A stretch of 64,000 bases of DNA from Candidatus Methanomethylicia archaeon (GCA_038845975.1 JAWBQF010000002.1:1-64000); one strand, 5' to 3'; shown: positions 6,761-63,817, numbered from the stretch's first letter. Made by a program: numbers and translations. The notes: a model not told the origin generated them from the letters alone.

Positions 6761-6775
6761 TATTTAAATCTTTTC
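6761..6775 (-). promoter_or_regulatory. BRE-TATA promoter of the acyl-CoA dehydrogenase gene
   Basis: GAAAAGA-TTTAAATA on the minus strand upstream of the ATG at 6731, with a GGTGG RBS. Confidence 0.7.
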
Positions 6776-6786
6776 AAGCATTAAAC

Positions 6787-7188
6787 AGCTTTGTTAACTT
6801 AACATGTTGATTATTCTATTTTGTTTTGTGTTTCTATGAATTCTTAGCTTTATCTTCTTATTAATCCATATCTTGTTTAGCATGTATACTATTGACTTCA
6901 TAAGCATTAATACACGTTCACCATCACACTTATCCTCATACATGGTATACAATTACTCCTTCTCATATCAAACTTAATGGAAGCTTAAGGATTCCACGAC
7001 AATATGGATGCATAACTCCTACAACAATAAGCAAAATATCTGAAACCATACTAGACAAACATGAACAGAAATATATAGCAACATAAACAACTAAGATAAA
7101 CGGAGTTCCCTCCCTAACAACTTTAACCATAGATTCATCATAAATAGGGAAGAGAAAACTCTCAAATAAAGCTAAAGTTAACAAAGCC
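6787..7188 (-). mobile_element. Internally deleted IS6-family element, family A (402 bp)
   Basis: TIRs GCTTTGTTAACTT / AAGTTAACAAAGC. Perfect 8-bp flanking direct repeat CATTAAAC (6779-6786, 7189-7196). Both halves are homologous to 63108-63773. Confidence 0.88.
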
Positions 7189-7711
7189 CATTAAACTCTA
7201 CAAACTCAACCATTCCTTATATAACCTTTAGAAATTTAAATTCTCAAATTCTACATGATATTTAAGCATTAACAATTTAAAGGCTTTCATAGACTAGCCT
7301 AGTAATTCTTAATTATGCTCGCGATGTAAGATTATAGTTATAAAGTTAAAGCTACTATAGGATACATTTAAGTTTTGTAAGCTTAAATGTTGCTTCGTAA
7401 ACTTTAGACAATATATCATTTTATATTTCTCCTATAGGAAATTTGTTTTACTCATTCTTTAATCCATTAATCCTAGCAATATATAACATTAAAATTTATG
7501 TATTAAGATATTCTAGAAATGATATATGTATGGACCTGTCTTCAGTATTTTCTTAAAATTTATGGTATAAGTATGAGTGATATTCTACTCTATTAGAATC
7601 CGTAATAGTTGAAATACTTCAATTAAGCTTCTAGAGTTAATAAGATAGAAGAGTTGAAATATCTTACTGGAAGATTTATATATTGCTGTTTCCTAGGTGT
7701 TTCGATAGATT

Positions 7712-8230
7712 ATGGTTTTAATAGATTTAATGACATCTAAAGAATCTAAATGGAGTTCCTCCAAATCTATTTTGAGTATTATTGGTGATCAGAAACCGTA
7801 TAGCTGTTATCAGTGTGCTAAGTGTTCAAGCGGCTGTCTCTCAGCTGAACTTCTTGAATTGATGCCTCATCAAGTAGTTAGCATGGTTAAACTCGGATTT
7901 TTAGATGAAATTGCTTCATCAGATATTATATGGTCATGTGCATACTGCTTGAAATGTGTTGAAAGATGTCCTCAAGACGTTGCTCCAGCTGAAGCTATAC
8001 TTGCTCTAAGAAACATAGCTTTCAAGAAGGGAATTAAAACACCTGAGGGCTATAGATTAATACTTGAGAATGTATTTGAAACCGGATGGATACAGAGTAT
8101 TCAACCGGTTATTAGTAGGGATGGGGAAATATATGTAAGAGATGATTTAAAGCTTCCAAGAAAACCAGAAATATCAAACATGGATAGCTTTAGGGAAGCC
8201 TTAGCAAAAACCCTAGGTGAAGAAATATAG
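7712..8230 (+). CDS. hdrC: Heterodisulfide reductase subunit C-like
   Basis: CYQCAKCSSGC and WSCAYCLKCVERCPQ 4Fe-4S motifs. Confidence 0.92.
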   Translation: MVLIDLMTSKESKWSSSKSILSIIGDQKPYSCYQCAKCSSGCLSAELLELMPHQVVSMVKLGFLDEIASSDIIWSCAYCLKCVERCPQDVAPAEAILALRNIAFKKGIKTPEGYRLILENVFETGWIQSIQPVISRDGEIYVRDDLKLPRKPEISNMDSFREALAKTLGEEI

Positions 8231-8249
8231 GTTAGAGGAAGTGTTAATC

Positions 8250-9134
8250 ATGTCTTTAACCTTCGGATTATATCCAGGATGTATTATACTAACTGAACAG
8301 TATGCGTATGAAATTGCAGCTAGAAACGTTCTTCCTCTTCTAGATGTTAAACTTGTAGATTTAAATGATATAAGTTGTTGTGGCGAACCGCTAATGAGTA
8401 TGAATAAGCTTACCTGGCTCTATCTTGCAGCTAGGAATATAGCTATTGCTGAAAAAAGCAATGTAGATATAATGTGCTTATGTAATGCATGCTACTTATC
8501 ACTTAATAAAGCTAAAAAACTTCTTATGGAGAATTTAAATCTTCTCGAAAAGATAAACTTAATACTTAATGATGAGGGATTAAAATATACTGGAAAACCT
8601 AAAGTTAAACATTTAATTGAGATTCTACATGATGATGTTGGAATTAATAAAATTAGGGAGAAGATAAGATTTAAGCTAGTAGGTTTAAAACTAGCTTCAT
8701 ATACTGGATGCCATTTACTTAGACCTAGCAGTATCATTAAGGCTGACGATCCTGAAAATCCTTCAAAGCTTAATAGGCTTGTGGAAGCTTTAGGAGCATT
8801 ATCACCACGTTATCCTGAAGAATTAGAGTGTTGTGGAGCAGGATTATTAATTCCGAAGCCTGATGGAGGATTATCATATGCAAGCACTCAGCTAAAAGCT
8901 ATTGTTAACAGAGGTTTTGATGGTGTTGTAACAGTATGTCCTGCATGCCATAAAATGTTTGATAGTAAACAAGCAGTAATAAATCAAACTCTAGGCTTAA
9001 ACATAGAGTTACCAGTAATCTACTACATACAGATACTTGGATTAGCTATGGGTTTAAGCATGATGGATATTGGATTACATCTTAATCAAAGCCCATGTGA
9101 TAAACTAGTAGCTAAGGTGAAGGGGAATGGATGA
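8250..9134 (+). CDS. hdrB: Heterodisulfide reductase subunit B-like
   Basis: Two CCG domains (YPGC..CCG..CNAC; YTGCH..CCG..CPAC). Start taken at the ATG at 8250. Confidence 0.93.
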   Translation: MSLTFGLYPGCIILTEQYAYEIAARNVLPLLDVKLVDLNDISCCGEPLMSMNKLTWLYLAARNIAIAEKSNVDIMCLCNACYLSLNKAKKLLMENLNLLEKINLILNDEGLKYTGKPKVKHLIEILHDDVGINKIREKIRFKLVGLKLASYTGCHLLRPSSIIKADDPENPSKLNRLVEALGALSPRYPEELECCGAGLLIPKPDGGLSYASTQLKAIVNRGFDGVVTVCPACHKMFDSKQAVINQTLGLNIELPVIYYIQILGLAMGLSMMDIGLHLNQSPCDKLVAKVKGNG

Positions 9135-10407: not shown

Positions 10408-10516
10408 ACAAATTAAACTACAAAATTACTATTTCTAATAGAATGCGTATAGCTCTACATGTCTAACTAATAGTATTATTTATTACTACGTAAACTATTA
10501 ACGATTAAACTTTAAT

Positions 10517-16523: not shown

Positions 16524-17978
16524 GTGAAACGGGGTGTTAAAGGAGGTATTATTAAGCTACTAAGTAGAGGAGAAATACTAGATATTCATTTATCAGCTAT
16601 TGAAGTATTAGAGGAGAAAGGGGTTAAGAGTAAATCAAAGAAAATACTTGAAATATTTAGAAATTGTGGAGCTGAGGTTGATTTTGATACTGGTTATGTA
16701 AGGATTCCTCAACATCTAGTAGAGGGGGCATTACGTAAATCACCAAGTAAAGTTATTCTCCATGGTAGAAGTGAGCAATACAGTATTCTACTAGAGAATG
16801 CTAGAGTATATTTTGGATTTGGGGGTACTCCAACACCATACATTAGAGATTTAGAAACTGGAGGTATTAGAAGACCTACAAAGAAGGATTTTGCTGAAGC
16901 TACAAGACTTGGAGATGCATTACCAAACATGGATTTCATAATGTCGATAGCTGGAGTATTTGATGTGCCTCCTGAATCAGAATATTTACATGAGTTTGAA
17001 GCTATGTTTAACAATACCGTTAAGCCAATAGTTTACTCGGCTCCAAGCGCATATTTAGCTAGGAGAGTAATGGAGATGGCTGCAATAGTTCTTGGAGGAT
17101 TCTACGAGTTGAGGAGAAAACCCATACTTGCACTATATAGTGAAACAGTTTCCCCATTAACTTTCGCTCAGGAAAACGAAGCTATGATAGAGTTTGCAAA
17201 TGAAAACATACCAATAGTTTTAGGTCCAGTACCAATGGCTGGAGCCACAGCGCCAATAACAGTAGGGGGAGCTACAGTTGTAGCTGTAGCTGAGGCTCTA
17301 GCTGCAATAACACTAATACAATCTGTAAAGCCGGGAGTACCAGTTATATATTCTGGCTGTGCAGCATTAATGGATCAGAGAACAGGTAGATTTTCGTATG
17401 GAGCGCCTGAGTTTGCATTAGGAAACATCGTACTTGCCCAAATGGCTCAATATTATGGTCTCCCATGTTTTGGATGGGGTGGATGTAGTGATAGTAAAGT
17501 TCCTGATGCTCAGGCAGGAGCTGAAGTAATGATGAATACTTTAGTTTCTGCTTTTTCAGGGATTAATCTTATTCATGACTTCGGTTATCTTGCAGGTGGA
17601 AGCATTGGATCAATGGAGATGGCTGTAATAGGGGATGAAGTTGCTGGAATAGTTAAGAGAATACTGAAAGGTGTAAGAATAGATGATGAAAGTCTAGCTG
17701 TAGACTTAATAAAAAACATCGGTCCTGAAGGACAGTTTATGTCTCAAAAACATACATTAAAATTCCTACGGAGAGAAGTATATACGCCAACACTATTCGA
17801 TAGAAAGCCTGAAAGCCTATGGCTAAGTGAAGGAGGAAGAGATATTGCAGTTATTGCAAGAGAAAAAGCTAAGAAAATACTTAAGGAACACGTTGTAGAA
17901 CCTCTACCAGAAGATATAAGAAAAAGTTTAAGTGACTTCGTGAAGAAATGCGAGAAAGAACTTATTAACAATAAATAA
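16524..17978 (+). CDS. mttB: Pyrrolysine-free MttB-superfamily corrinoid methyltransferase (paralog 1)
   Basis: IH...EVLE..G, GATAP.T..G, YGLP...GGCSDSK.PDAQAG.E, GP.G.F...HT. No in-frame TAG. Confidence 0.92.
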   Translation: MKRGVKGGIIKLLSRGEILDIHLSAIEVLEEKGVKSKSKKILEIFRNCGAEVDFDTGYVRIPQHLVEGALRKSPSKVILHGRSEQYSILLENARVYFGFGGTPTPYIRDLETGGIRRPTKKDFAEATRLGDALPNMDFIMSIAGVFDVPPESEYLHEFEAMFNNTVKPIVYSAPSAYLARRVMEMAAIVLGGFYELRRKPILALYSETVSPLTFAQENEAMIEFANENIPIVLGPVPMAGATAPITVGGATVVAVAEALAAITLIQSVKPGVPVIYSGCAALMDQRTGRFSYGAPEFALGNIVLAQMAQYYGLPCFGWGGCSDSKVPDAQAGAEVMMNTLVSAFSGINLIHDFGYLAGGSIGSMEMAVIGDEVAGIVKRILKGVRIDDESLAVDLIKNIGPEGQFMSQKHTLKFLRREVYTPTLFDRKPESLWLSEGGRDIAVIAREKAKKILKEHVVEPLPEDIRKSLSDFVKKCEKELINNK

Positions 17979-19842: not shown

Positions 19843-20589
19843 CTAGAACACGTATTTTTCACCTAGATAAGCTTCTATAACAGCTTCATTATTGGCTATT
19901 TCCTTAGGAGCTCCTTCAGCTATCTTCTGCCCATAATGTAGTACAATGAGTCTCTGAGCTACATTCATTATAAACCTCATGTTATGATCTACTACAAGCA
20001 CTGTAACACCAGTACTATTAAGCTTTCTTATTAGGTCAATCATTATTGAAAGCTCTGAAGGATTTAATCCAGTAGCAGGCTCATCAAGTAAAATAAGCTT
20101 TGGATCTGTTAGTAGAGATCGAGCTAGCTCTACACGTTTCATTTCAACAACGTTTAGGCTTCCAGCAACTATATCCTTCTTTTCAATGGGGAAACCTACA
20201 AACTTAAGGGTTTCCAAAGCTTTTTCTCTAGCCTCCTTAAAACTTGAAAGATTCTTCCTACCAAACATTGCTCCACTCATAACGTTTTCAAGTACAGTCA
20301 TATTAACGAATAAACGAGTTATTTGAAATGTTCTAGCAATACCCTTCTTACATATAAATTCTGGTTTAAGACCAGTAATATCACTACCTTCAAAAAGTAT
20401 CCTACCACTATCAGGCTTATAGATTCCATTAATTACATTGAGGAGAGTTGTCTTACCGGCTCCGTTAGGACCAACTAAACCTAGAATTTCACCATTATAT
20501 AAGTCAAAGCTAACATCATTAACGGCAACAAGTCCACGAAACTTCTTAGTAACGTTTGCAATCTTTAATATAGAATCGTTTCCACTCAT
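19843..20589 (-). CDS. livG: Branched-chain amino acid ABC ATPase LivG-like
   Basis: GL.AV.DVS, GIARTFQ, LDEP..GL, V.EAYLG. Confidence 0.92.
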   Translation of the reverse strand: MSGNDSILKIANVTKKFRGLVAVNDVSFDLYNGEILGLVGPNGAGKTTLLNVINGIYKPDSGRILFEGSDITGLKPEFICKKGIARTFQITRLFVNMTVLENVMSGAMFGRKNLSSFKEAREKALETLKFVGFPIEKKDIVAGSLNVVEMKRVELARSLLTDPKLILLDEPATGLNPSELSIMIDLIRKLNSTGVTVLVVDHNMRFIMNVAQRLIVLHYGQKIAEGAPKEIANNEAVIEAYLGEKYVF

Positions 20590-20641: not shown

Positions 20642-20700
20642 AGCTTTGTTAACTTTAAATATGAGAAGCACATGTAGCTGATGGCCTAAGTTCACAAGTC
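20642..20700. mobile_element. ~59-bp miniature element with IS6-type ends (mini family B)
   Basis: AGCTTTGTTAACTTT...TAAGTTCACAAGTC. Homologous to 39911-39970, 53131-53188 and 35102-35156. Confidence 0.75.
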
Positions 20701-20877
20701 ACTCCTAACAATAATAAAACTTAAAATATCTGAAGCCATTCTAAATGAACAAAAATATATAAGCACCATAAAGCTAGAGTAAACGGAGTTCTCTCTAAAT
20801 AAATCTAACAGCTTTAAACATAAACTCACCATAAATAAGGGAGGGAAAACAAGATAAAGTTAAAGTTCACAAAATCC
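20701..20877 (-). mobile_element. Right-end remnant of an IS6 family A element
   Basis: Aligns with 205-376 and 7015-7188. Ends TAAAGTTCACAAAATCC. Confidence 0.72.
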
Positions 20878-23418: not shown

Positions 23419-24885
23419 CTAAGTCTTAGATTTTAAATAGTTTTTAATTAAATTCTCAATAGATGCTTTAATATCGTTTGGTATAGGCTCTACATAATGT
23501 TCTCTAAGTATTTTCTCCATTTTCCTCTTTACGTTTTGAAGTAGTGTTCTCCTATGTTTTGACCATGTAGTCCATGAAGACTTATCCATAATTTCAGACA
23601 TTACATATTCTAGAGGTAGATTCCTTATTGTATGTTTTAAACTTAGAAAGCTACCACCATAGCTAACAGCTTTAATAGTATCTACTGCAAGCGTTTCATC
23701 ATCTACACGTACACCTCTCATAAACCTCTTTAGAATCGATATCAGCTCATCACATATTACTATTAGCTCTAAGCTTCCTGACTTGGCTGATTCGAGAAAT
23801 CCTAAATCATGTATGAGGCTATGTCCACTTAGTGAGGATATTACTAAGCTCATAGATGCTTCAGCAATAGCCTGCTCATCAAGAATCTTAGAGTCACTCA
23901 TACCGCCTGTACCCCATGATGGAAGCTGGTAGAAATCAGCTATCTGAGCAAGCATAACCTGCATTAGTAGTGTTTCAGCAGTTTCATAGGATACAACTCC
24001 ATACCGCATATTTAAAATTAATGGTACAGTTCCGAAAACAAATGGGGTACCCGGATTTATTAGCTGGGCAAGTACGAGACCTGCAAGGCTTTCAGCACAT
24101 CCCTGAGCTATATTACCTGCAAGAGTTACCGGCGCATTAGCACCGCTTATAGGTATTGGCGCATAAATTATCGGCAGCCCTACACTACACCACTCTATAA
24201 GAGATTCAACATATTCTCTACCTACAAATAGTGGTGATTGAGGCTCATCATATAGGGAGACAATAGGTCTCCTCCTAAGCTCTTCAATACCTCCAGATAT
24301 CAATTCTGCAATCTTAATTATGGTTTTTGTTAGTTCTCCATCACCATAGCAGAATACTTGAACATGCTTACAAGTATTGGAGAGTACAATGTATGGTTCG
24401 TAGAGTGGAATTAGAGCTGGGGGGATATCGGAGGCTGATGTTAAGCCCATAACGAAGTCTATGTTTTTCAAGGCATCACATAGCTTAGCAACATTAGCCA
24501 TATCAGATAGTCTTCCAGCTCTACGCTCCCCAGTTTCGAAATCGATTATTGATGGAGCGCCACTACATGGACCGAAAAATACCTTCCTACTGTCAACTAT
24601 AAAATCTTCCTCGGAATTACGTCCACAAAATCTAATGCTTTTAGGTGTTTTCTTAATGGATTCCATAACCAGGCTTTCAGGGAATTTTACAACTTGCTTT
24701 TTAAAATCAACAGTAGCACCAGCATCATAAAGGATTTTTAAGGCGTTTTCATGCTGAATCTGTACTCCAATTTCACTCATTATTTTCAATATGGCATTAT
24801 GAATGCTTAATACTTGATCTTTATTAAGGATTTTAATTTGCCCCCCTTCAAATCCAGTCCTCATGAAGAAACCGTTTAGCAACAA
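23419..24885 (-). CDS. mttB: Pyl-free MttB-superfamily methyltransferase (paralog 2)
   Basis: APVTLAG, LPSWGTGGMSDSK.LD.QA..E. Confidence 0.9.
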   Translation of the reverse strand: MLLNGFFMRTGFEGGQIKILNKDQVLSIHNAILKIMSEIGVQIQHENALKILYDAGATVDFKKQVVKFPESLVMESIKKTPKSIRFCGRNSEEDFIVDSRKVFFGPCSGAPSIIDFETGERRAGRLSDMANVAKLCDALKNIDFVMGLTSASDIPPALIPLYEPYIVLSNTCKHVQVFCYGDGELTKTIIKIAELISGGIEELRRRPIVSLYDEPQSPLFVGREYVESLIEWCSVGLPIIYAPIPISGANAPVTLAGNIAQGCAESLAGLVLAQLINPGTPFVFGTVPLILNMRYGVVSYETAETLLMQVMLAQIADFYQLPSWGTGGMSDSKILDEQAIAEASMSLVISSLSGHSLIHDLGFLESAKSGSLELIVICDELISILKRFMRGVRVDDETLAVDTIKAVSYGGSFLSLKHTIRNLPLEYVMSEIMDKSSWTTWSKHRRTLLQNVKRKMEKILREHYVEPIPNDIKASIENLIKNYLKSKT

Positions 24886-38568: not shown

Positions 38569-39603
38569 GGTTCTGTCGGATAAGAAGTGGGCTAGTAATT
38601 TAATGTTATGAATATTCCAGCCAGTTAATAGATTGGATAGTTAAGTATTTAGGAGGTTGATGAGCTTAAAGTTAAGGTATTCTTGTTTGGCTGATATCGA
38701 ACTCATTGCAAAACCTTAGGTATATCATTCACTATATACTGAAACGGCTTGACTTTAAAATCTTAAGATCAGGAGGACTTCACTCCCTTTTTAATTTATT
38801 TGGTTGTTGCTATCGGATAAGGGTATGGATTGAAATAATTAATCTTTTCTAGTTTTTGCTCTTCTCTTACTGTATTCATTGAGCTGTTGGTTATTTAGCC
38901 CATCTCTTGCTCTTTGTTTCCTCGGCTCAGAAAGTCATAGTAGAACTTAAGCTCTTAGAAGCTCTTAGATGATTTAAAGCTAGGCTTTTCTCTCTCAGCT
39001 TTCTAAGAGTATTTTAAGTTGATGTTGTGGGAGAATATGCCTGTTCTATGCTTCAAGTAAGCGAAGATCCTTCCACGAAGCTTCCCTCCATTTGTTTGAT
39101 TCTCTTGTTCCAATCCTAGCTGCTCAACCCCTTCCTTAAGCCAACACTCCCTATCCCTTATTATCCTTGGCTTGTTTAGACATTTATTAAGCACTTCTTG
39201 AAGGAAAATTCTAGTTACTAAAGAACTCCTAGCAGGATAAGCCCTTATCTCTACAAGCTCCTAGTATCCACGTCTATGGAAGCATAAACCCAAACCCCCA
39301 CCCTTAAGCTTAATGCAAGCCTCATTTATAGCTATGGTTAAATGCTTCTTTAATTTCCCCACTCCTTAGCTTCCAAAATAGCTCTAAACCCCAGCACCAC
39401 TCGTTTAGATTACTGGCAAATCCCACCAAAGCTCAAGAAGCCTAGAAGCTTTCTACAAGAGCTCAATATAAGCCAATCAAAAGCCTTCAGCTCAATTGGC
39501 TTTTTATTCCTTTAAAGATATTTAAGCTCCCAGTCCAACCTATTAACTGGGCTGGAACCTCTATATATTAATTACCCAGCCCAACTTTTATCCGGACAGA
39601 ACC
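38569..39603 (-). mobile_element. IS6-family element, family C, with frameshifted transposase
   Basis: ~30-bp imperfect TIRs beginning GGTTCTGTC. Minus-strand relics AINE..IKLKG..VWVYASIDVDT and KPRII.DR..WL...V..LGL. Confidence 0.85.
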
Positions 39604-43303: not shown

Positions 43304-44761
43304 CTACTGTAATTGTAGCCTTTTCCTCCTTTCTTCCTCTATTAGCTTCCTAATTTCGTTCTCTACGCCTTTATCTAGAGGTTCAGGCTGATGCTCCTTT
43401 AGTATTTTATTCACAGTTTCCCTTGCTTTCTCTCTTAAGCTTTTCTTTTCGTTAAGCCATCTACTTGTTGGTTTTCTATCTACAATCTTAGGCGGTCTAT
43501 ACTTACTGAGGTTTTTCAAGGTATGTTTACTTTTTAAGTAATGCCCTTCAGGTCCAGTTTCTTTAATTGCTTCAAACGCTAGCTCCTCCTCATTTACATC
43601 TATAGCTTTCAGGAATCTATCTACATAGGATACTATTTCACTATCTATAATTGCCTTTTCAAGGCTTACTATATCTACTCCAGGGCCCATCATTCCTCCC
43701 CCGGCATTCATTATTAGGTTACAGCCTGCAAGAGCAGTAGTAAGAAGAGACATACCTGCTTCAAATCCTGCCTGCATATCAACATCCTTAGATTCAGTTA
43801 CTCCAGCAGTACCTCTAGATGGAAATCCGTAAAATCTAGCTATTTGAATAGATGCAGCATTAAGAAGCATACCCTCAGGACAGCTGTAAACCATGGTTCC
43901 ATATCTCTGATCAAAGATTGCTGGTGCAGTACCATAAATAACTGGTGGTCTCCTACCCTTCTCAGATGCTGAATATGCAATAACAAAACTGCTTAGGATT
44001 TCTGCGTTTTGCTGTGCTAGAAATCCTGCTAGAGTTATTGGAGCTGTTGATCCGGACTGGGGGGCAGAGGCAATAAGTATTGGAAGACCAAGCTTTGCAA
44101 ATGCTAGAACTTGATGAAGTTGACTCTTAATATGACTTAATGGGCTTAACGGATTCTCCCATGCAATAACTATTGGCTTCTTCCTCAATTCATTAATTCC
44201 ACCAGTAAGAATTGAAGCTATCTTAACTATAACGTTTACATCCTCTTCACTAAGCATTGAGGTTGGCGCAATAGGTTTTACTGTATTTTTAAGCTTTACA
44301 AAATAGGTTTCTAGAAGCTGCATACTTGCAGGCACATCTACTGGAAAGCCTGGTCCAGCTATGAAATCTATAGAATCTAATGCATCGTAAAGCCTTACGA
44401 GAACCTCAATATCCTTCAGAGTTAAACCTCTTATATCCCCATTTAAATCCATTATCTTCAATGGTGCACCACCATCCAAATAGTTAACTACACCATCTTC
44501 AACAGCTATGCTTAACCCTCTACCATAATATGTAAATCTTGATGGAAGATTTCTTAAGGCCTCTTTTAGTAAATCTTCAGGAATTCTTACAGTCATCGAT
44601 GAATAATCTACTTCAGCTCCAATTTCATCAAGTTTTTTTAAAGCCTCTTCATGATTAACCTTAACCCCTATTTCTTCAAGTATCTTAAGTGTTACTACAT
44701 GAATCCTATAGATTTGATCTCTAGATAATACCTCAAGACACTTACTAATTCTACTAGGCAT
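43304..44761 (-). CDS. mttB: Pyl-free MttB-superfamily methyltransferase (paralog 3)
   Basis: SPL, G.TAPITLAG, YGFP.RGTAGVTESK..D.QAG.E. Confidence 0.9.
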   Translation of the reverse strand: MPSRISKCLEVLSRDQIYRIHVVTLKILEEIGVKVNHEEALKKLDEIGAEVDYSSMTVRIPEDLLKEALRNLPSRFTYYGRGLSIAVEDGVVNYLDGGAPLKIMDLNGDIRGLTLKDIEVLVRLYDALDSIDFIAGPGFPVDVPASMQLLETYFVKLKNTVKPIAPTSMLSEEDVNVIVKIASILTGGINELRKKPIVIAWENPLSPLSHIKSQLHQVLAFAKLGLPILIASAPQSGSTAPITLAGFLAQQNAEILSSFVIAYSASEKGRRPPVIYGTAPAIFDQRYGTMVYSCPEGMLLNAASIQIARFYGFPSRGTAGVTESKDVDMQAGFEAGMSLLTTALAGCNLIMNAGGGMMGPGVDIVSLEKAIIDSEIVSYVDRFLKAIDVNEEELAFEAIKETGPEGHYLKSKHTLKNLSKYRPPKIVDRKPTSRWLNEKKSLREKARETVNKILKEHQPEPLDKGVENEIRKLIEEERRKRLQLQ

Positions 44762-44814
44762 ATAGCCACCAAGAGCTAAACAATGCCATTCTATATTAAC
44801 TTTTATGCTATACA

Positions 44815-45486
44815 GGTGTTAACTTTAACTTTATTTTGGAAGATTCTCCCTTATTTACGGTGAACTTATGGCTAAAGTTATTAGGTTTGTAGGAGATAAC
44901 TTGATTTACTTTAGCTTTATGGTGCTTATATATTTCTTTATCCAAGATGGTTTCGGATATTCTAAGCTTTATTATTATAGGAGTTATATATCTACATTAT
45001 GATTTATCTTAAGTTATTTGAGTTTGATAGGAGATGTTAAGATTGATGATTAATGATGCTATTATTGTAGATTCTATGAAGGAAATTGTTTATGTTGCTG
45101 AGCCATTATTGGAAGGATTTTATACATATGATTATGACGTTGTAAATATACTTAATCATTAACTTAAAGGATTAGAGTTATCTATGTTCTAATATAATTG
45201 TATTAGGTGATGAAGTTCATTATTATAAAGCACCATGTAAATACGAATTTAAACATTATATAGTTCAAGGTTAGAATTAATGGAGATAATAATACAATTA
45301 AGGATGGAACTAAGTTATTCAATAATTACATACCATGTATGAAGAATAAATTTAATAATGAATATGTATCCATCTTATGAAATCAATAGTATAACTAAAC
45401 GCGGATTACAATAAGATAAAGCTAAGAATTCATGGAAGATACAATACCAAAATAGAAATGAGAAACATGCTTAAATCAACAAAGCC
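44815..45486 (+). mobile_element. Near full-length decayed IS6 family A element (inverted relative to the other copies)
   Basis: Reverse complement aligns along 63108-63773. Right end TTAAATCAACAAAGCC; left end eroded. Confidence 0.8.
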
Positions 45487-45639
45487 ACTAACAGCTACAA
45501 AATCTTATTAAAGAGCATATTATTTAATAGAGGGATGATGTAGTACTTGCTATGTTGTAGATTCATTCGTGGAAATAAATCTACGTTAAAGTAATTATTG
45601 TTTCTATATAAGATTTATTAGGTAGCCTATAATAGTAGA

Positions 45640-51743: not shown

Positions 51744-51954
51744 GGTACCTGTAACTTTAGAAATTTATTACTCCCATCACTTTAATATATTTCCATAATT
51801 CTACAGCATTTATTATGATTACTTATATTTAAAAAGCTAATAAACCATTTCAACTTAAACATAATATACTTCAAACATTATTGATTCCACATAGCCCTAT
51901 ATTCATCACAATCTTACCAATACATTTAAAAAATATTTAAAGTTAACAGAGTGC
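51744..51954. mobile_element. ~210-bp AT-rich MITE-like element, family D
   Basis: Ends GGTACCTGTAACTTTAG / TTTAAAGTTAACAGAGTGC. Interior homologous to 57334-57567. Confidence 0.6.
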
Positions 51955-53130: not shown

Positions 53131-53188
53131 TGCTTGTTAACTTAAGCCATCAGCTACATATACTTCCACATTTAAATTTCATAGAGTC
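53131..53188. mobile_element. 58-bp mini element, family B
   Basis: Reverse complement matches 20642-20700. Flanks CATTTAGC / TATTTAAC (6/8). Confidence 0.7.
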
Positions 53189-53688
53189 TATTTAACGATA
53201 AGTGCTAAAGACTTCAGATATAGCTATAAACTACATTTAGAACCATCTTTATGGATAATCTGTAAAGAAAGACTCTATGTGCTGATATATATTACCTTTA
53301 CATTCATACCCAACATACGGATTGGTGAGAATTAGATCTAAATAGCTCAATATTCATTATGATACATTAAACTTCTTTTTGAACCCTCTTCAGGACATCT
53401 TAATAGTATCATTCTCAATATCTCTTCCATCATCATAACCTACTTAGAGCTGTATCCTAATTAATGAAAATGTAAAATTACTATTAGAATTCTCTTATAT
53501 TTCCAAACATTCTTTGTCTTTCTTATGAATGTATGGGAATGTTCTCCTATAACTTAAATGAAGAACCCTAAGTTTCATGAAGTAATTTAACAAGGAAATA
53601 TTATTGAAGACTTATACTAACAGCAATAATTACCTTCTAGATAAAGCAAAACATGTTATGAAGTTTGTATTTTATGTTTAAACTATGC

Positions 53689-55146
53689 TTAGGAACTCTT
53701 AACCATCTCCCTCTCAGCTTCTTTAACTATCTCTTCAAGTTTTCTTTTAATATCTAGCGGTAATGGTGTAGGTTCATGTTCAGCTAGGATCTTTCTAACA
53801 GCCTCCCTAGCTCTCTCACCTATATCTTTCCTACCTTTCCTCATCCATGCTTCAAGTTTACTTTTATCAAATATTTGAGCAGTATAAAGCTCTCTTAAAT
53901 GCTTTAAAGTATGTTTCTGTGAGAAGAAATGTCCATGAGGTCCAACACTCTTGATAATGTCAATAGCTAGTGTTTCATCATTAACAGTAACTCCCTTAAT
54001 TATGTTTAGAACGTTTTCAATAATTTCATCACATATTACAGCCATTTCAAGAGAACCAGCACTTCCACTTGCAAGATATCCGCAGTCATGTATTAATGTT
54101 ACTCCTACAAGCGCACTTATTAATAATAGCATTGTAGCTTCACAACCAGCTTGAGCATCTGGAACTTTTGAGTCAATAGCTCCGCCAAGCCCGAAGCATG
54201 GTAGATTATAGAATTCAGCTAATTGACCGTTTAAAACCCCAAATGTAAGAGCATTCTCTGGAGATGCATATGTTGCAGTTCCTGTTTTCTGATCCATAAC
54301 TACGCCCCAAGCTGCATATATTACTGGTGAATTAGGCTTAACAAGTTGAATAAGTGTTATTGATGCAAGTGCTTCAGCATTTGATACTGCTACGGCACCA
54401 GCTGGCGTTATAGGTCCTGTAGCACCTAGAATTGTTGCTGGACCCAGTGTAACAGGTATTCCTGCTCTTGCACATTCTATCATATTCTCATTTTCAAGGG
54501 TAAACTTTAATGGAGATACTGTTTCAGAGTAAATACTAAGTATTGGATTCCTTCTTAATTCATCTTCTCCACCAACAATTTCAGAAGCCATTCTGATAAC
54601 GTATCTTGTACATTTAGCAAATGGAGCTGAGTAAATAATTGGCTTTTCAGTATTGTTAAATAATGCTTCGAATTCATGTATGTATTCGACCTCGTAGGGT
54701 ACATCAAATGCTCCAGCAATATTCATTATAAATGACATATTTCGAAGAGCATTACCTAACTTAGCCATCTCCATAACATCTGTTTTACTAGGTCTTCTGA
54801 ATTCTCCTGTTCTCCAATCTCTTACGTATGGTACAGGAGTTCCCCCCATGCCGAAGTAAACTCTACCATTTTCAATAAGAATACTATACTTAGGATTTCT
54901 ACCATGAAGAATAAATTGCTTCTTAGATTTCTTAATGCATTCTTCAATTAGGTAACTTGGTATTCTAATTCTTTTCCCCTTAAAGTCAACATTAGCTCCA
55001 GCATCATTAAAAATCTTTAAAATCAATTCAGATTCTGAATGCATACCAGTATTCTCTAAAATTTCAAGCGATGCATTATGAATACTTGTAAGCTCATTCT
55101 TATTGAGAAATTTTAAAACTTGACATTTAGGACCTCTAATAACCAT
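53689..55146 (-). CDS. mttB: Pyl-free MttB-superfamily methyltransferase (paralog 5)
   Basis: ENGRVYFG.GGTP, LPCFGLGGAIDSKVPDAQAG.E. Confidence 0.92.
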   Translation of the reverse strand: MVIRGPKCQVLKFLNKNELTSIHNASLEILENTGMHSESELILKIFNDAGANVDFKGKRIRIPSYLIEECIKKSKKQFILHGRNPKYSILIENGRVYFGMGGTPVPYVRDWRTGEFRRPSKTDVMEMAKLGNALRNMSFIMNIAGAFDVPYEVEYIHEFEALFNNTEKPIIYSAPFAKCTRYVIRMASEIVGGEDELRRNPILSIYSETVSPLKFTLENENMIECARAGIPVTLGPATILGATGPITPAGAVAVSNAEALASITLIQLVKPNSPVIYAAWGVVMDQKTGTATYASPENALTFGVLNGQLAEFYNLPCFGLGGAIDSKVPDAQAGCEATMLLLISALVGVTLIHDCGYLASGSAGSLEMAVICDEIIENVLNIIKGVTVNDETLAIDIIKSVGPHGHFFSQKHTLKHLRELYTAQIFDKSKLEAWMRKGRKDIGERAREAVRKILAEHEPTPLPLDIKRKLEEIVKEAEREMVKSS

Positions 55147-55386: not shown

Positions 55387-56610
55387 TTAGCTAATTGGTG
55401 GATATATTTGCTTTGCAGCCATTGGGTCTTGATTTATCTCTGTGAATTCAAAGGTGAATTGAGTCATTCCTATCCATTGATGCCAGAGAGGTTGTTTAGG
55501 TGTTGGATCGTTAATAAGCTTAATGGTTCCTGTTGTTCCTTCTATTTCTATGTTTTCAATGTATTTAGCTAGAGTATCTGGATTTGTGGAGCCTGTTGCC
55601 TCAATAGCTTTACATAGAATTCTTAAGCAGTCCCAGTACCAATATAATGCGATAAATGGGTCTTTACCATACTTTTCCTTATATAACTTTCTAAACTCTT
55701 CCCCTGTTTTCGTTAGTTTCATATATGGTGAATAATAGGTTGGATACATTGAGCCTACACCACCTTTACCTACAGCCTCCCAGAATGATTTCGGATCCCA
55801 TGTTGGACAATCATTTCCAAAATAAATTTTAATGCCTAAATCTAGAAATCCAAGCTCTACAGCTTGTTTTGCTGCGACGAATGCATGTGGCACATTTAAA
55901 TGTATAACTAGAACATCTGGTTTAGGATCTAAAGCCTTAATTCTACTTAGCTCAGGTGTATAATCTGCTTTACCCATTGCTGCCGGTATAAATGTAAACT
56001 TTACTTCTGGAAATATTTTCTTAGCCCACTCTACTAAAGCATCCCTCTGACCAAAACCATATGGTGATTCCTCAACTAATACAGCAATATTCTTCCATTC
56101 TTTCCATTTGAAGAATTCAAGAGCCTGTCCAGCAATAAGTGAATTGTATACTCCAATTCTAAATACATATTTATAGTGGTTTGCCGTTATCTCATCAGCC
56201 CAACTGTATGTTACAAACATTATTGTTGGGAATTTTTCTGTTGCTTCAGCAACTGGGAGTGCAACTAGACTCTCCCATGGACCTATTAATCCAGCTATTT
56301 TATCTTGAGTAACCATTCTTTGAAGATGTGAAATAGCAACACCAGGATCTAGTGTTTGATCAGCAACAACAAGCTCCAACTCCCTACCAGCAACCCCACC
56401 CTGCTTATTCATCCACTCAACAAAAAGCTGAGCAGTTTCAAGTATAAGCTTTCCGGAAACATAGTCTGCTGGTGGTGATAGTGGTGTTATTACACCAATC
56501 TTTATTTTCTCCCTAGGTTTAGGTATAAGCGTAAAGTAAGCAATAACAGCAATAGCAGCAACCACAATTACAGCTACTATTATAGCACCAATAATTTTTG
56601 TACTAACCAT
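55387..56610 (-). CDS. Liv/Peripla_BP_6 substrate-binding protein 2 (paralog of 50443-51687)
   Basis: Shares long nucleotide-identical blocks with SBP1. Confidence 0.9.
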   Translation of the reverse strand: MVSTKIIGAIIVAVIVVAAIAVIAYFTLIPKPREKIKIGVITPLSPPADYVSGKLILETAQLFVEWMNKQGGVAGRELELVVADQTLDPGVAISHLQRMVTQDKIAGLIGPWESLVALPVAEATEKFPTIMFVTYSWADEITANHYKYVFRIGVYNSLIAGQALEFFKWKEWKNIAVLVEESPYGFGQRDALVEWAKKIFPEVKFTFIPAAMGKADYTPELSRIKALDPKPDVLVIHLNVPHAFVAAKQAVELGFLDLGIKIYFGNDCPTWDPKSFWEAVGKGGVGSMYPTYYSPYMKLTKTGEEFRKLYKEKYGKDPFIALYWYWDCLRILCKAIEATGSTNPDTLAKYIENIEIEGTTGTIKLINDPTPKQPLWHQWIGMTQFTFEFTEINQDPMAAKQIYPPIS

Positions 56611-56666: not shown

Positions 56667-57324
56667 GATACTGTCAAGTTATTTTGGGGGTTTGGGAAGC
56701 TGTTTTTGGAGGTCTATTAGGTGGTTTCTTAAAGCCTTTGAGGATAGTGGTTTGTTAGGATTGATAGGTTTTCGGATGTGGGTTAGGGCTGTTCTGCTAT
56801 ATGGTTGGCTTGAGCTATAGGGGATAATCTACGTTTTGGGGTTTGTGTGTAGCTACGAGGCTGTAGGGCTTGGGTTGGAAGCTGGAACGCGTAACGGTTA
56901 ACGTTGGAGTTAGGTGTATGGTAGTAGTTGGTGGGGTAGGATTAGGGCTTATGGAATGATGATGTGTATGGGCTGCTATAGATGTTTATACGTGTAACGT
57001 ATGGGCTTCATGGCGGAGAAGTATCCTCCATGAAGCCTTCATGAGGAGGGTTTTGGAGGCATGTATGAATAGCCATTATCCTCGTGGCCCCTATATCCTG
57101 AAGCCCTTCAGGCCTTAAATGGATTCATAGAACCTTCGGCGAGGGAAACGTATTGAACGATGGTTTAGAACAATGAAAGCTAGGACTAGAGCTTCTTTAA
57201 CAACTTCCAGTAAAGCCTATCTTCAAGATAAACTCTCCATAAGGCTCTTCATCCCATGTACAACTTCATAAGACCACATCAAACCCTAAAGAGACCACCA
57301 GCAAGCCAACAACTTGACAGTATC
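56667..57324 (+). mobile_element. IS6-family element, family E (658 bp), transposase decayed
   Basis: Perfect 14-bp TIR GATACTGTCAAGTT and perfect 9-bp direct repeat GCTAATTGA. Higher GC than the flanks. Relics GLSYR, GLKWIHRTFGE, IERWFRTMKART..FNNFP. Confidence 0.92.
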
Positions 57325-57333
57325 GCTAATTGA

Positions 57334-57567
57334 TGTCTTATCAACTCTAGAATCTTTATTATTTCATCATTAATATATTTCTATAATTTTTATTATCTAA
57401 ATTCCTAATAACATTTATTATGATTGCTTAAATATCTTAAAAAGAAAATAAATCACTCCAACTTACCTAACGCATATCTATTATTAACATTATTGAGCTT
57501 ATGTTATTTTATATCCATTACAACTTATCAACAAACTAAATATAAACATCTAAAGTTGACAGGGTAT
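57334..57567. mobile_element. ~235-bp MITE-like element, family D
   Basis: Ends TGTCTTATCAACTCTAG / CTAAAGTTGACAGGGTAT. Interior similar to 51744-51954. Confidence 0.6.
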
Positions 57568-57608: not shown

Positions 57609-58277
57609 TTGGTGGTGTTGTTAATGTCTACAAATCTTGTTAACGAGTTAAGGGAAGCAGTTTTAAGCTATGATCTAGATACGTTGATTAATGCTGTTAA
57701 GAAAAGCTTGGAGAAGGGAGTAAGTGCTATTGACGTTATTAATGCTTTAACTGTTGTTTTAAGGGAAGTGGGAGATAAGTTTCAAGCTGGTAGTCTATTT
57801 CTTGCTGAGCTTGTAGCAATAGCTGAGAACGTTAAGACAGCTATTTCTGAAGTTCTTGAGCCTGAACTTAAGAAGATAGGTGGTGAAAGAAAGTCTTTAG
57901 GTAAGGTTGTTATTGGAACTGTTCATGGAGATATTCATGATATAGGTAAGAATATTGTTGCATCAATGCTTTTCGCAGCTGGATTTGAAGTCTACGACTT
58001 AGGTAAGGATGTACCCGTAGAGGAGTTTGTAGGAAAGGCTAGAGAGGTTAATGCAGATATTATTGCTATGTCTGCTCTTCTAAGTACAACTCTACCAGTA
58101 CAGAGAGAAGTTATTGAGAGGTTAAGTAGAGAGGGATTGAAAGAAAAGATAAAAGTTATGGTTGGAGGGGCTCCAGTAACTAAGGAGTGGGCTGAAGAGA
58201 TTGGAGCTGATGGGTATGGTGAGGATGCAATAGAAGCTGTAAGGGTAGCTAAAACGTTATCAGGTGTAAGGGAGTAG
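57609..58277 (+). CDS. Methyltransferase cognate corrinoid protein (MttC-like)
   Basis: GDIHDIGKN, SALLS, VGGAP, IGADGY. Confidence 0.94.
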   Translation: MVVLLMSTNLVNELREAVLSYDLDTLINAVKKSLEKGVSAIDVINALTVVLREVGDKFQAGSLFLAELVAIAENVKTAISEVLEPELKKIGGERKSLGKVVIGTVHGDIHDIGKNIVASMLFAAGFEVYDLGKDVPVEEFVGKAREVNADIIAMSALLSTTLPVQREVIERLSREGLKEKIKVMVGGAPVTKEWAEEIGADGYGEDAIEAVRVAKTLSGVRE

Positions 58278-58285
58278 GGGGAAAA

Positions 58286-59713
58286 TTGACTAGAGGATTA
58301 ACTGGTAGACAGTTAAAGTTTTTATCAGAAGAGGAAATTAGAAAAATACATGAAATATCTCTTAGAATACTTGAGGAAGTAGGTGTTAAATCAACTTCAA
58401 AAAGAATACTTGAAGTACTTAGTCGTTCAGGTATAGATGTAAATGTTGATAAGGGAATTGCTAGGATTTCGAGAAGCCATGTTGAGGAAGCTTTAAAGAA
58501 AGCCCCTAAAAGAATTGTTATATATGGACGTAGCCAGGAGAATGCAGTAATTCTTGAAAATGGACGTGTTTATTTCGGTCTTGGAGGTACGCCAACACCC
58601 TACATACTTGATGTAGAGAGTGGAGAATTTCGCAGACCAGGTGTAAGAGATGTAGCTGAAGCTACAAGACTTGGAGATTCATTATCTAATATAGACTTTA
58701 TAATGACAATAGCTGGAGCATTTGATGTACCGTATGAAGTGGAGTACCTATACGAGTGGAAAACCATACTAAGCAATACTAGTAAGCCTATAGTTTACCC
58801 AGCGCCTGGAATCATAAATGCTGAAAAAGTAGTTAGAATGGGTATAGCTATAGCTGGAAATGAGGATGAATTTAGAAGGAAGCCAATATTTGGAGTTTAT
58901 GTTGAAATGCCCTCACCACTTACATTACATGATGCAAACGAAAACATTATAGTTCTAGCTGAAAAAGAGGTCCCAATAGTAATTGGGCAAATGCCACAAC
59001 TTGGAGCTACAGCTCCAGTAACTTTTGCAGGTGCAGCTGCCTTAAGCAATGCTGAAAATCTAGCTGCCCTAACACTTACACAAATAATTAATCCTGGAGC
59101 TCCATTCATATATGGGGGATACGTAACATTAATGGATCAGAAAACGGGTAGATGTGCTTACGGTGCTCCTGAGTTTGCTATGGGTAATATTGTTGATTCA
59201 GCTCTTGCAACATACTATGGTCTTCCATGCTTTGGATGGGGTGGATGTAGTGATAGTAAGGAGCCTGATGTTCAGGCAGGAGTTGAAGTCATGATGAATT
59301 CTCTAGTAGCTGCACTTTCAGGAGTTAATCTTATTCATGATTTCGGCTATCTTGCAGGTGGAAGTGTTGGATCTATGGAAATGGCTGTAATAGGAAATGA
59401 AGTTGCTGGAATGATTAAGAGAATATTAATGGGAATAAAGGTGGATGATGAGGATCTAGCATTTAACGTAGTGAAAGATATTGGTCCAAGTGGACACTTT
59501 CTAAGCCATCCACATACATTAAAGCATCTTAGGAGCGAAATTTACATGCCTGAAATATTTAATAGGGATAGTGAAGCTAAATGGATTCGATCCGGAAAGC
59601 CTAGTGTTAGAAACAGTATTAAAAGAAGAGTTAGAGAGATATTGAAGACACATAATCCAGAACCTCTACCTGAAGATATTCAGAGAAAAATAGAGGAAAT
59701 AATAAGAAATTAA
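58286..59713 (+). CDS. mttB: Pyl-free MttB-superfamily methyltransferase (paralog 6)
   Basis: YGLPCFGWGGCSDSK.PD.QAG.E. Closest to paralogs 1 and 5. Confidence 0.92.
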   Translation: MTRGLTGRQLKFLSEEEIRKIHEISLRILEEVGVKSTSKRILEVLSRSGIDVNVDKGIARISRSHVEEALKKAPKRIVIYGRSQENAVILENGRVYFGLGGTPTPYILDVESGEFRRPGVRDVAEATRLGDSLSNIDFIMTIAGAFDVPYEVEYLYEWKTILSNTSKPIVYPAPGIINAEKVVRMGIAIAGNEDEFRRKPIFGVYVEMPSPLTLHDANENIIVLAEKEVPIVIGQMPQLGATAPVTFAGAAALSNAENLAALTLTQIINPGAPFIYGGYVTLMDQKTGRCAYGAPEFAMGNIVDSALATYYGLPCFGWGGCSDSKEPDVQAGVEVMMNSLVAALSGVNLIHDFGYLAGGSVGSMEMAVIGNEVAGMIKRILMGIKVDDEDLAFNVVKDIGPSGHFLSHPHTLKHLRSEIYMPEIFNRDSEAKWIRSGKPSVRNSIKRRVREILKTHNPEPLPEDIQRKIEEIIRN

Positions 59714-62248: not shown

Positions 62249-62305
62249 GGCTCTGTAAACTTTAGATATGAAAGTATAGGATGATAGCTCGATTTCGTAG
62301 AGTTA
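62249..62305. mobile_element. Mini element, family B
   Basis: GGCTCTGTAAACTTTAGATATGAAAGTATA left end. Confidence 0.6.
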
Positions 62306-62404
62306 CTTAATTCAGAATTGGAGCTCTATTCTTTTGCTAAGTTCCATTGTAAATTGAGGATAGATAGAGTTAAAAGTAGGCTTTACTACTAACTACAGGG
62401 TGGT

Positions 62405-62851
62405 ATTACGGCTTCAGTTAAGAAAATCAATGAAAAAACACAACAGTTAGTATCAGAGTATAATGCATTACAGCTTTTAATAGATAGATTACAGAAGCAG
62501 ATGGAAATTATAAATGCATCCATGTCTGATGTTCAGTCAGCACTGTCAGCTCTAGATGAGCTTAAAAAGCACTCTGAAGAAAATGAGATACTTGCTAATA
62601 TTGGTGCGGGAGTTCTTCTTAAAGTAAAATATATTCCAGGAACTAAGATTATAGTGCCTCTAAATCCAAGTACATATATAGAGACAACAATTGATGAAGC
62701 TAAAAACATTCTTGAAAGAAAAATGGAGAGACTTAACTCAGCACAAGTTGAAGTTAGAAAACAGTTAAGTCAAGCAGCTTCAAGACTAAGTGAAATAGAG
62801 CCAAAACTACGTACAATTCTTCAAGAGGAAACTACAGGAAGAGGAGGTTGA
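62405..62851 (+). CDS. pfdA: Prefoldin alpha subunit
   Basis: Coiled coil - EIL..IGAG...K...I.V.L....YIE....EA - coiled coil. The frame is open back to an ATT at 62405. Confidence 0.82.
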   Translation: MTASVKKINEKTQQLVSEYNALQLLIDRLQKQMEIINASMSDVQSALSALDELKKHSEENEILANIGAGVLLKVKYIPGTKIIVPLNPSTYIETTIDEAKNILERKMERLNSAQVEVRKQLSQAASRLSEIEPKLRTILQEETTGRGG

Positions 62852-63054
62852 AGTACACTACTATACACTTGCAAATAATATAGCTACAATCATAATTACA
62901 GTCTCTTTCTCTAATAGTAATCCATTTTAAGGTGAAAAACAATCCAGCTATGGAAACAGATCTTAATAAATGTTCGTCACACAAATGGGAAAGTATGATG
63001 AAGCTATAAAAACATTCTAGAATCAATGTTTAATTTATAAACTAATAGATTTTG

Positions 63055-63100
63055 TCTTGTTAACTTAGCTATTAATTACATAATCTAAAGTTCACGGAAC
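63055..63100. mobile_element. Shortened mini element, family B, abutting the IS6 at 63108
   Basis: GTCTTGTTAACTTAGC...TCTAAAGTTCACGGAAC. Confidence 0.55.
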
Positions 63101-63107
63101 AATAAAT

Positions 63108-63773
63108 GGCTTTGTTAACTTAAGCATGTTTATTACCTCTATTTTTAGTATTGTATTTTCTATTAATTCTTAGCTTTACCTTCTTATCAATCCATATTCG
63201 TTTAGTAGTATACTATTAAGTATTAATACATGTTCATTATCGCATTTATCCTTCATACACAGTATGTAATTATTGAATATCTAGTTCTATCCTTAATGTA
63301 TAATCCCCTATTAATTCTATTAAGCTATACTATGTTTAATTAAGCATGATGCTTGTAGTAATGAGTATAATTTAATACAATTACATTAACCGTAGATAGC
63401 TTTAATCTTCTAGGAATGTTAGTGATGTAAGCATATTTACAGCATTACGGAGACATGTATAGAATGTAATTATCGAATCCTCCTTAATAATGGCTTAAAA
63501 TCAACATAACAATCTTCCTCATAAACCTACAATTATAATAGTATCATCAACCATAACAATCCTAACATATTTCTATCGAATTCAAAAAAGACTTAAACCT
63601 AATATAGATACATAACTTCTATTAACAGTAAAAACTTAGAATATCTAAAGCCATCCTAGACGAATGAAAATATGTAAGCACCATAAAAACTAAATTAAAT
63701 GTGGTTCTCTCCTTTTTCCGTTTGATACTATAAATAAGAGAGAACCTTAAATAAAGCTAAGGTTAACAAAGCC
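63108..63773 (-). mobile_element. Full-length decayed IS6 family A element (666 bp)
   Basis: TIRs GGCTTTGTTAAC / GTTAACAAAGCC. Flanks CAATAAAT / TGATAAAT. Minus-strand relic YVRIVMVDDTIIIVG. Confidence 0.85.
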
Positions 63774-63817
63774 TGATAAATTTTGGAAAGACTTATATAT
63801 TTCGAAAATATAACACA

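Follow-up and report, generated by a model that had tools for sequence, protein, structure and literature searches.

Fixed spacing between archaeal IS6-type elements and TATA boxes: evidence for candidate promoter-targeted transposition in a Methanomethylicia archaeon

Introduction

Why should the ends of mobile elements lie at almost the same distance from the TATA boxes of unrelated genes? The question is raised by a 64,000-nucleotide stretch of DNA from a Candidatus Methanomethylicia archaeon (GCA_038845975.1), hereafter the window, in which a first-pass annotation had placed a series of IS6-type insertion sequence (IS) elements and their derivatives. It listed ten spacings of 18–20 nt between an element end and the first base of a TATA box, and suggested that the transposase is recruited by the TBP–TFB complex or by the bent promoter DNA. 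Contig C2, whose first 64 kb make up the window, belongs to an assembly of 2.77 Mb (76 contigs, ~33% GC). The host archaeon encodes TBP and two TFB paralogues, its TFB being 64–66% identical to proteins labelled Methanomethylicia or Verstraetearchaeota; a 16S gene was looked for in the assembly and none was found. Here we describe how the spacing recurs throughout this genome and in related elements, and weigh what could set it.

Results

A promoter lies at a fixed distance from the element ends

Family A, the main one, is ~700 bp long, with GGCTTTGTTAACTT as its inverted repeat and 8-bp target duplications, and occurs at 213 merged BLAST loci in the genome, 56 of which are 650–750 bp long. 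Matching the GGCTTTGTTAACTT pattern with ≤ 2 mismatches gave 326 genome matches and 325 usable outward flanks, which are non-redundant (313 clusters from 325). Positions are counted outward from the element tip, +n being that of the first T of the TATA box. Base frequencies of the 325 flanks, taken without any matrix, hold information solely at +13 to +24, with the consensus G-W-A-A-A-R-T-T-T-A-W-A; A at +16 and T at +21 both reach 0.62, against a background of 0.34. The hexamer TTTAWA begins at +19 in 57/325 flanks, compared with 1.26 ± 1.08 (maximum 4) at positions 40–145.

To relate this motif to ordinary genes, a matrix built from the columns of the 325 aligned flanks was run against the upstream regions of 2080 genes, all > 400 bp away from the nearest element end. 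The first T peaked at −29/−28 (83 and 67 matches) and at −35 to −40 from the start codon, and the matches were strand-specific (795 forward versus 224 reverse). Because the matrix peaks at fixed distances from ordinary start codons, the flank motif is the organism's real promoter, consisting of the TFB-recognition element (BRE) and the TATA box. The genome has two sharp promoter classes, with the TATA first T at −28/−29 or at −35 to −40; judged from these distances, the former would fit leaderless transcripts and the latter short leaders. A second matrix was rebuilt from 736 upstream sites of ordinary genes and used to rescan the flanks.

The 736-site matrix puts the first T at +19 in 104/325 family-A flanks; 14 have it at +18, 10 at +20 and ~1 at each other position, while 20,000 random intergenic positions give chance frequencies of 0.31% at +19 and 0.80% at +18 to +20. 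The first-pass annotation had named a genome-wide histogram of end-to-TATA distances as the check on its claim, and the outcome is a sharp peak at +19, far over random intergenic positions; the same matrix also recovered each of its ten spacings at the distance first given, with scores of 7.7–14.2. A called gene start is faced by 102 of the 123 promoter-bearing (+18 to +20) ends, and TATA-to-ATG distances cluster at 28–31 and 36–39, as in ordinary genes.

Either element end can face the promoter. Of the 33 family-A copies (of 79 paired) with a duplication of at least 7/8, 26 have the promoter on one side and 1 on both; the remaining 6 have it on neither, though some of these carry weaker matches at +19. 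Among the paired copies that lack a duplication, promoters occur on both sides in 8 and on neither side in 14; these copies would fit recombination or intramolecular events, and equally decay. On the far sides of the elements a median of ~250 bp of non-coding DNA extends to the next gene, so that the position is not forced by lack of room. We also considered a separate class of TATA boxes pointing at the element and rejected it: of 20 reverse matches, 14 coincide with forward ones and the other 6 are forward-like. With no separate class of promoters facing the element, insertion is on the BRE side.

The insertion point itself and its duplication have no conserved sequence, positions +1 to +12 being almost without information, which is not the pattern of an IS with a sequence-specific target. 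As first proposed, it is the position relative to the promoter that is conserved and not the duplicated target. In the few copies that permit the comparison, an 8-bp duplication goes with an end-to-TATA distance of 18 nt and a 9-bp one with 19 nt; what stays constant thus appears to be the 10-bp spacer that separates the duplicated target from the TATA box, and an intact copy from a metagenome (L203, below) agrees with this.

The transposase gene has a BRE/TATA-like promoter of its own, reading inward from the tip. A distance of 19 nt between its first T and the tip was counted in 93 of the 117 ends upstream of the transposase, compared with 0 of the 116 downstream of it (an example is the copy at 63108–63773, minus-strand reading), and this layout was also found in 24 of 37 metagenome copies (loci L182–L261). 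Consequently, the arrangement 'active site, then TBP/TFB site 18 nt away' is already present on the element. The spacing from tip to own promoter is the same 19 nt as that from tip to host promoter outside.

Other lineages and relatives keep the spacing

Two more decayed IS6-type lineages are present in the genome, the GATACTGT-type and the GGTTCTGTCC-type. The first T is at +19/+20 in 16 of 50 GATACTGT-type ends and at +18 to +20 in 9 of 22 GGTTCTGTCC-type ends. In five GATACTGT-type copies with 9-bp duplications the best-scoring position is +20 throughout (score ≥ 6 in two only), and in the single copy of this type with an 8-bp duplication it is +19. Family-A and GATACTGT-type transposases are 34% identical over 74 aa. 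Since the lineages differ in their inverted repeats, their DNA-binding specificities should differ, yet they have a target landmark in common.

A metagenome search with the transposase alignment yielded 80 loci; once duplicates and 13 flanks matching this genome were removed, 93 unique flanks remained. The runs with a related element are labelled hot-spring metagenomes. Of these flanks, 36 have the first T at +19, 5 have it at +20 and 2 at +18, every other position having ≤ 3, and the copies carry differing repeat variants (CGTCTTGTAAACTT, CGCTTTGTAAACTT, GGCTCTGTAAACTT). Among metagenome copies with perfect duplications, 7 have the promoter at the transposase-upstream (left) end, 8 have it at the downstream (right) end and 5 at neither, so that there is no orientation bias.

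Of 401 genomes covered by a phylum-wide search, 77 contain IS6 matches. Three of them, belonging to another family (GC ~50%, inverted repeat GGGACTGTCAACTT), supply 38 flanks; in 15 of these, six consecutive A/T begin at +20, whereas positions further out average 0.82 such flanks and never exceed 3. G383, a complete 2.8-Mb genome of a further family, has 41 copies of a 667-bp element, which is active, many copies being identical with perfect duplications. Here the six-A/T run peaks at +21 in 25 of 62 flanks (mean 5.8, maximum 11), and matrix matches ≥ 4 fall at +19 in 6/62 flanks against 0.14. The 8-bp duplications of G383 (loci L270–L299) are palindromic, S-W-W-N-N-W-W-S, and +11 is A/T in 94% of the 62 flanks.

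In the same-genus genome G001 (62% complete) we obtained 28 matches to the repeat pattern versus 11 for a control, and three ends only scored ≥ 6 at +18 to +20, too few to serve as a replicate; no DNA match to the acd region (next to the element at 6787–7188 of the window) was found in G001, hence no empty-site comparison there. G368 is uninformative with 3–5 copies only. In G251, 2 of ~10 left ends score well at +18/+19; they were left out of the counts, the right element boundary being unclear. A ~104-bp repeat with > 20 copies in G251 adjoins an IS6 copy (L268:851–955) and may be a separate miniature element. Among 62 genomes covered by a class-level search the transposase was present only in the window's own genome, and a 14-base repeat scan of genome contigs gave chance matches in unrelated organisms only, with the element in none of the fetched loci. 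One public contig, 2,446,706 bp long, bears both a family-A transposase fragment (P0005) and a TFB (P0031) with 95% identity to that of the host, so that an almost closed genome of a close relative may exist.

A polymorphic insertion breaks a gene and keeps the spacing

L203 is the only intact copy found, of 798 bp with a 228-aa open reading frame (ORF) at 3001–3687. Next to its end stands the 9-bp duplication TACTGAGCT, and after a further 10 nt of spacer TTTATATA follows at +20. The empty allele is represented by a contig of run X1, which joins 2892 to 3700 and skips exactly 807 bp (the 798-bp element plus 9 bp), whereas contigs of run X2 pass from both flanks into the element. The L203 insertion is therefore polymorphic, and the motif is older than the insertion. 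The element splits a 567-aa ORF into 387 and 189 aa, so that selection for harmless sites cannot have placed this copy. As L203 is recent and harmful, yet keeps the spacing, the rule acts at the insertion step.

The elements as probable distant members of the IS6 family

The IS6-like elements as a whole are ~0.7 kb long, with terminal inverted repeats of 14–17 bp starting GG, a single DDE transposase of ~228 aa and duplications of 8–9 bp. Family A and L203 agree with the IS6/IS26 family in length, inverted repeats and single ORF. The 8-bp duplication of IS6 is retained at ≥ 7/8 in the 33 of 79 paired family-A copies mentioned above and is complete (8/8) in 20 of 41 metagenome copies; GATACTGT-type and L203 duplications measure 9 bp. 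All 52 full-length family-A copies are pseudogenes (longest open frame 145 aa; stops of all three kinds), and their peptide remnants show the DDE pattern. P0002, an intact 228-aa family-A relative from the metagenomes, aligns through residues 8–199 to positions 2–197 of the 202 in NCBIfam profile NF033587 (E = 5.7e-14), at 52.3 bits, which is under the 125-bit cut-off; a 97-aa GATACTGT-type fragment reaches 55.8 bits on the same profile, and a GATACTGT-type genome copy 41.3 bits on Pfam PF13610, over the 27-bit cut-off. In the Pfam search P0002 had no match and P0006 a weak one (E = 0.19). Judged from sequence, by structure and profile matches taken together, the elements are probably distant members of the IS6 family.

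Self-BLAST of the genome revealed one IS6-like supercluster that accounts for 405 of 477 repeat regions, ~185 kb or roughly 6.7% of the assembly. No second abundant insertion sequence was found by this comparison, and hence no control family from the same genome.

Copies and promoters in the window

The copies in the window, with the promoters beside them, are as follows (scores are those of the 736-site matrix).

8–375: partial family-A IS6-like copy, cut by the contig start, right end at 375 (BLAST); the flank scores 13.4 for a TATA-like match at +14 and reaches 7.3 at +18 to +20.
6761–6775, minus strand: promoter of the acd-like gene (acyl-CoA dehydrogenase-like, 5505–6731, minus); first T 6768, +19, score 11.9, TATA-to-ATG 37.
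6787–7188: family-A internal-deletion derivative, 402 bp, inverted repeats AGCTTTGTTAACTT / GGCTTTGTTAACTT; 8-bp duplication CATTAAAC (8/8) at 6779–6786 and 7189–7196; far side without promoter (matrix −18.2).
20642–20876: composite of a ~57-bp mini-element and a family-A fragment; ABC ATPase (livG) gene 19843–20589, minus, first T 20623, +19, score 12.6.
36889–36946: 58-bp mini-element of two GATACTGT-type inverted repeats between divergent promoters; left, DUF3782 gene 36231–36845, minus, first T 36869, +20, score 9.2; right, cyclodeaminase gene from ~37003, plus, first T 36964, +18, score 13.9.
38569–39603: decayed family-B IS6-like copy with inverted repeat GGTTCTGTC... and extra internal DNA; small ORF 38277–38507, minus, first T 38550, +19, score 7.7; in the family as a whole, 9 of 22 ends have it at +18 to +20.
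44812–45487: decayed family-A copy, left end eroded; MttB-like gene 43304–44761, minus, 7.5 at +18 counted from 44817, distance uncertain.
51744–51954: 211-bp non-coding derivative, ends GGTACCTGTAACTT / GCACTCTGTTAACTT, between divergent promoters; SBP1, first T 51725 (+19, 12.3), and racemase, 51974 (+20, 10.1).
53131–53190: ~60-bp mini-element, an exception; score 2.3 at +19, and −13.1 on the other side.
56667–57325: 659-bp decayed GATACTGT-type copy, 9-bp duplication GCTAATTGA; SBP2 gene 55387–56610, minus, first T 56647, +20, score 13.2.
57335–57567: 233-bp non-coding derivative abutting the 56667–57325 copy; corrinoid gene from ~57609, first T 57586, +19, score 14.2.
62249–62300: mini-element with end GGCTCTGTAAACTTTAG..., right boundary approximate, an exception; no TATA at the fixed distance.
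63108–63773: 666-bp decayed family-A copy; nifB-like gene 63818–64729, plus, first T 63792, +19, score 14.0.

The first-pass annotation is borne out in calling these IS6-type elements and deletion derivatives, with the ends where it had placed them. Both target duplications it reported are real, CATTAAAC (8 bp) flanking 6787–7188 and GCTAATTGA (9 bp) flanking 56667–57325, and the two exceptions it conceded, at 53131 and 62249, are genuine, with no good match at the fixed distance. The copy near 44817 has an eroded end, for which reason its distance is uncertain.

Mini-elements of 55–60 bp consist of little beyond two inverted repeats; there are many genome-wide, and some keep the spacing (for example 36889–36946; others are 53131–53190 and 20642–20698). 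The window also holds paralogous genes of ~480 aa, first annotated as MttB-like (16524–17978, 23419–24885, 43304–44761, 53689–55146 and 58286–59713), and two paralogous genes of ~220 aa, first annotated as corrinoid proteins (32981–33655 and 57609–58277).

Discussion

What sets the spacing

We are nearly certain that these elements choose their target by reference to the archaeal core promoter, and that they do so at the insertion step rather than through later selection. The staggered cut is set so that the duplicated 8–9 bp stop 10 bp before the TATA first T, 3–4 bp upstream of the BRE, always on the BRE side and with either end of the element towards the promoter. As to what is read, we propose that the landmark would be a promoter occupied by TBP and TFB, recognized by contact or via the DNA they bend. 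Core promoter and gene would be left intact and upstream regulator sites displaced, so that copies would be tolerated and accumulate.

On circumstantial evidence, the TBP/TFB-occupied promoter, more than bare BRE/TATA, is somewhat probable as the landmark. A fixed distance is found here as in host-factor-tethered transposition of the Ty3/TFIIIB type. When the 104 targeted sites were compared with 780 ordinary promoters, no BRE/TATA column (+12 to +26) differed at p < 0.001. Moreover, middling motifs (scores 8–12) are occupied 2–5 times as often in promoter position as elsewhere in intergenic DNA (13/240 versus 8/827, p = 1e-4; 21/213 versus 14/333, p = 0.011). The landmark common to lineages with unlike inverted repeats and distant transposases, and the transposase promoter that begins 19 nt from the element's own tip, lean the same way. 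The wider proposal, that archaeal IS6 transposases dock on the TFB–TBP–promoter complex or its bent DNA and integrate at its upstream edge, that the left end of the element, with its tip 18 nt from the transposase TATA, would be the template for the geometry, and that this trait is widespread in archaeal IS6, is offered more tentatively.

Several observations weigh against a host factor as the reader of the promoter. Targeted and ordinary promoters were chosen by the same matrix threshold, so that their likeness is partly built in; gene starts were taken from a simple purpose-made gene caller. Motifs scoring ≥ 12 are occupied outside promoter position (17/124 and 7/45) as often as in position (15/144 and 12/62). 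The landmark of L203 is an intragenic, TATA-like motif antisense to the broken gene and no known gene promoter. Bases at the cut site are weakly biased, C being favoured at +1 (0.35 versus 0.16) and T over G at +3. The two sides of the G383 copies carry the A/T block independently of each other (both sides in 7 copies, 7.1 expected), and a symmetric DNA-shape preference is possible there. Finally, survivorship among dead copies may have raised the promoter-adjacent share, though it is unable to create the spacing.

An alternative is direct readout of DNA, in which the transposase or transpososome itself recognizes, at a fixed distance from its active sites and with no host protein, either the sequence of BRE and TATA or the intrinsic bendability of that DNA, promoters being simply the best instances of the motif. 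Bare-sequence recognition explains the occupancy of the strongest motifs and the L203 target equally well. Overall occupancy climbs with matrix score, from ~1% to 15–19%, and both the extra preferences at +1 and +3 and the two-sided independence in G383, together with its S-W-W-N-N-W-W-S duplication, are typical of direct target contacts or in keeping with them. Against this, the transposase would have to read a ~12-bp motif in which no column departs at p < 0.001 from the joint TBP plus TFB consensus of ordinary promoters, and transposases 34% identical with unlike inverted repeats would all need the same specificity. The flanks at +1 to +12 are unlike the elements' inverted repeats, so the end-binding domain does not read the target; middling motifs are favoured in true promoter position; and cryptic intragenic motifs can also bind TBP/TFB, so that L203 decides neither way. 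We regard direct readout as possible but rather unlikely. A further candidate, host promoters that mimic the transposase-bound inverted repeat, was rejected: the flank at +1 to +12 does not resemble the repeat, and the terminal 30 nt of the element, read outward, score ≤ 1.3 on the matrix.

It is very improbable that insertion is random and that copies survived only at harmless spots just upstream of the BRE, including the midpoint of divergent pairs ~100 bp apart. Three pairs in the first-pass annotation do lie in divergent intergenic regions that measured only ~100 bp before insertion, none of the 5571 intragenic motif matches in this genome is occupied (0/5571), and all copies here are old and dead; selection probably does raise the promoter-adjacent share in old populations. 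The peak has single-base precision, however, with 104 at +19 against 14 and 10 beside it and ~1 elsewhere, the far sides are roomy (median ~250 bp), and the active G383 copies, identical and with perfect duplications, peak as well. L203 disrupts a 567-aa gene with its spacing kept, by which selection as the sole cause is already contradicted. The earlier argument that selection alone is insufficient for a fixed spacing is thus upheld by single-base precision genome-wide, in three IS6 lineages of this genome, in metagenome relatives and in IS6 elements of other archaeal families, and by a polymorphic, gene-breaking copy.

Selection for hybrid promoters deserves as little credence. Here the element end would supply an upstream promoter part that works at this spacing only, as in the −35/−10 hybrids of IS26 and IS257; the available text of PMC7986276 presents hybrid promoters as a feature general to bacterial IS6 members, and the spacing is the same in every lineage. 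Yet BRE and TATA are wholly host DNA and match ordinary promoters, either end faces the promoter though the ends differ past the first 14–17 nt, > 100 unrelated genes would each need positive selection, and L203 gains nothing and breaks a gene. An artefact, with TATA boxes picked by eye in AT-rich DNA or misplaced ends that make the motif element-borne, has next to no chance of being the cause: TATA-like strings are common in a genome of 33% GC, but matrix-free frequencies and a plain hexamer count peak alike, the inverted repeats are directly bordered by the duplications, what is missing from the empty allele is exactly the element and one duplication, the motif being kept, and a lineage of 50% GC peaks too.

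Comparison with known systems

In Tn7, TnsD guides insertion at attTn7, where a DNA-bound protein or distorted DNA defines the insertion point at a fixed distance to one side. Tn7 has its own dedicated target selector and a single chromosomal site, whereas hundreds of sites with a common host transcription signal are used here. IS26 is targeted by a conservative reaction at another IS26 copy. The bacterial IS6/IS26 elements (IS26, IS257, IS6100) resemble those described here in size, DDE transposase, short inverted repeats, 8-bp duplication and a left-end promoter for the transposase, and archaeal IS6 clades with elements of 700–750 bp are known, as set out in the available part of PMC7986276. 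Their link to promoters in that part consists of −35/−10 hybrids; it contains no promoter-relative target preference, and TATA is absent from the main text.

A counterpart in logic is Ty3 of budding yeast, which is targeted by TFIIIB (TBP plus Brf1) to RNA polymerase III start sites, likewise to a narrow position set by a core-promoter landmark and with the gene intact (available portions of PMC8632968 and PMC6673722). Archaeal TBP and TFB have their eukaryotic relatives in TFIIIB, which comprises TBP together with a TFIIB-related factor. Ty3, however, is a long terminal repeat (LTR) retroelement with an integrase, and its insertions fall at the start site, downstream of where TFIIIB sits, whereas a DDE transposon inserts upstream of the BRE here, and the protein contact, shown structurally for Ty3, is in our case only inferred. 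Dictyostelium TRE5-A and yeast Ty1 show a similar safe-harbour targeting upstream of genes in gene-dense genomes, which the accessible sections of PMC6101501 and PMC5006619 read as convergent evolution avoiding insertional damage; these are eukaryotic retrotransposons confined to polymerase III (tRNA) genes within windows of tens of bp, in contrast to archaeal DNA transposons that use protein-coding promoters with single-base precision. The RNA-guided IS1111/IS110 elements likewise have high positional specificity, but read their target by base pairing (PMC11187229 and PMC11208160, as far as their available text goes), whereas here the duplicated target is variable and the landmark 10 bp away.

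The available part of a re-annotation of Pyrococcus furiosus (PMC6640164) covers IS6 copies and discusses antisense start sites, but not targeting by promoter distance. A full-text literature search, with subscription-only papers and supplements not covered, returned no prior description of promoter-distance targeting by archaeal insertion sequences or by IS6.

Implications

Few prokaryotic transposons have a known target choice, and a promoter-anchored rule is apparently new for archaea and for IS6. By this rule, element ends alone suffice to predict promoters in uncultured archaea, and it might open a way to archaeal insertion tools that act close to promoters and spare genes. If docking on TBP/TFB is true, insertion sites would be a natural footprint of initiation-factor occupancy, including that of cryptic intragenic promoters. 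For the organism, the rule explains how a compact genome tolerates ~200 copies; it also carries the warning that the elements systematically cut genes from their upstream regulator sites. Should the landmark be the TBP/TFB complex, an archaeal DNA transposon and a yeast LTR retrotransposon would have reached the same solution via homologous factors.

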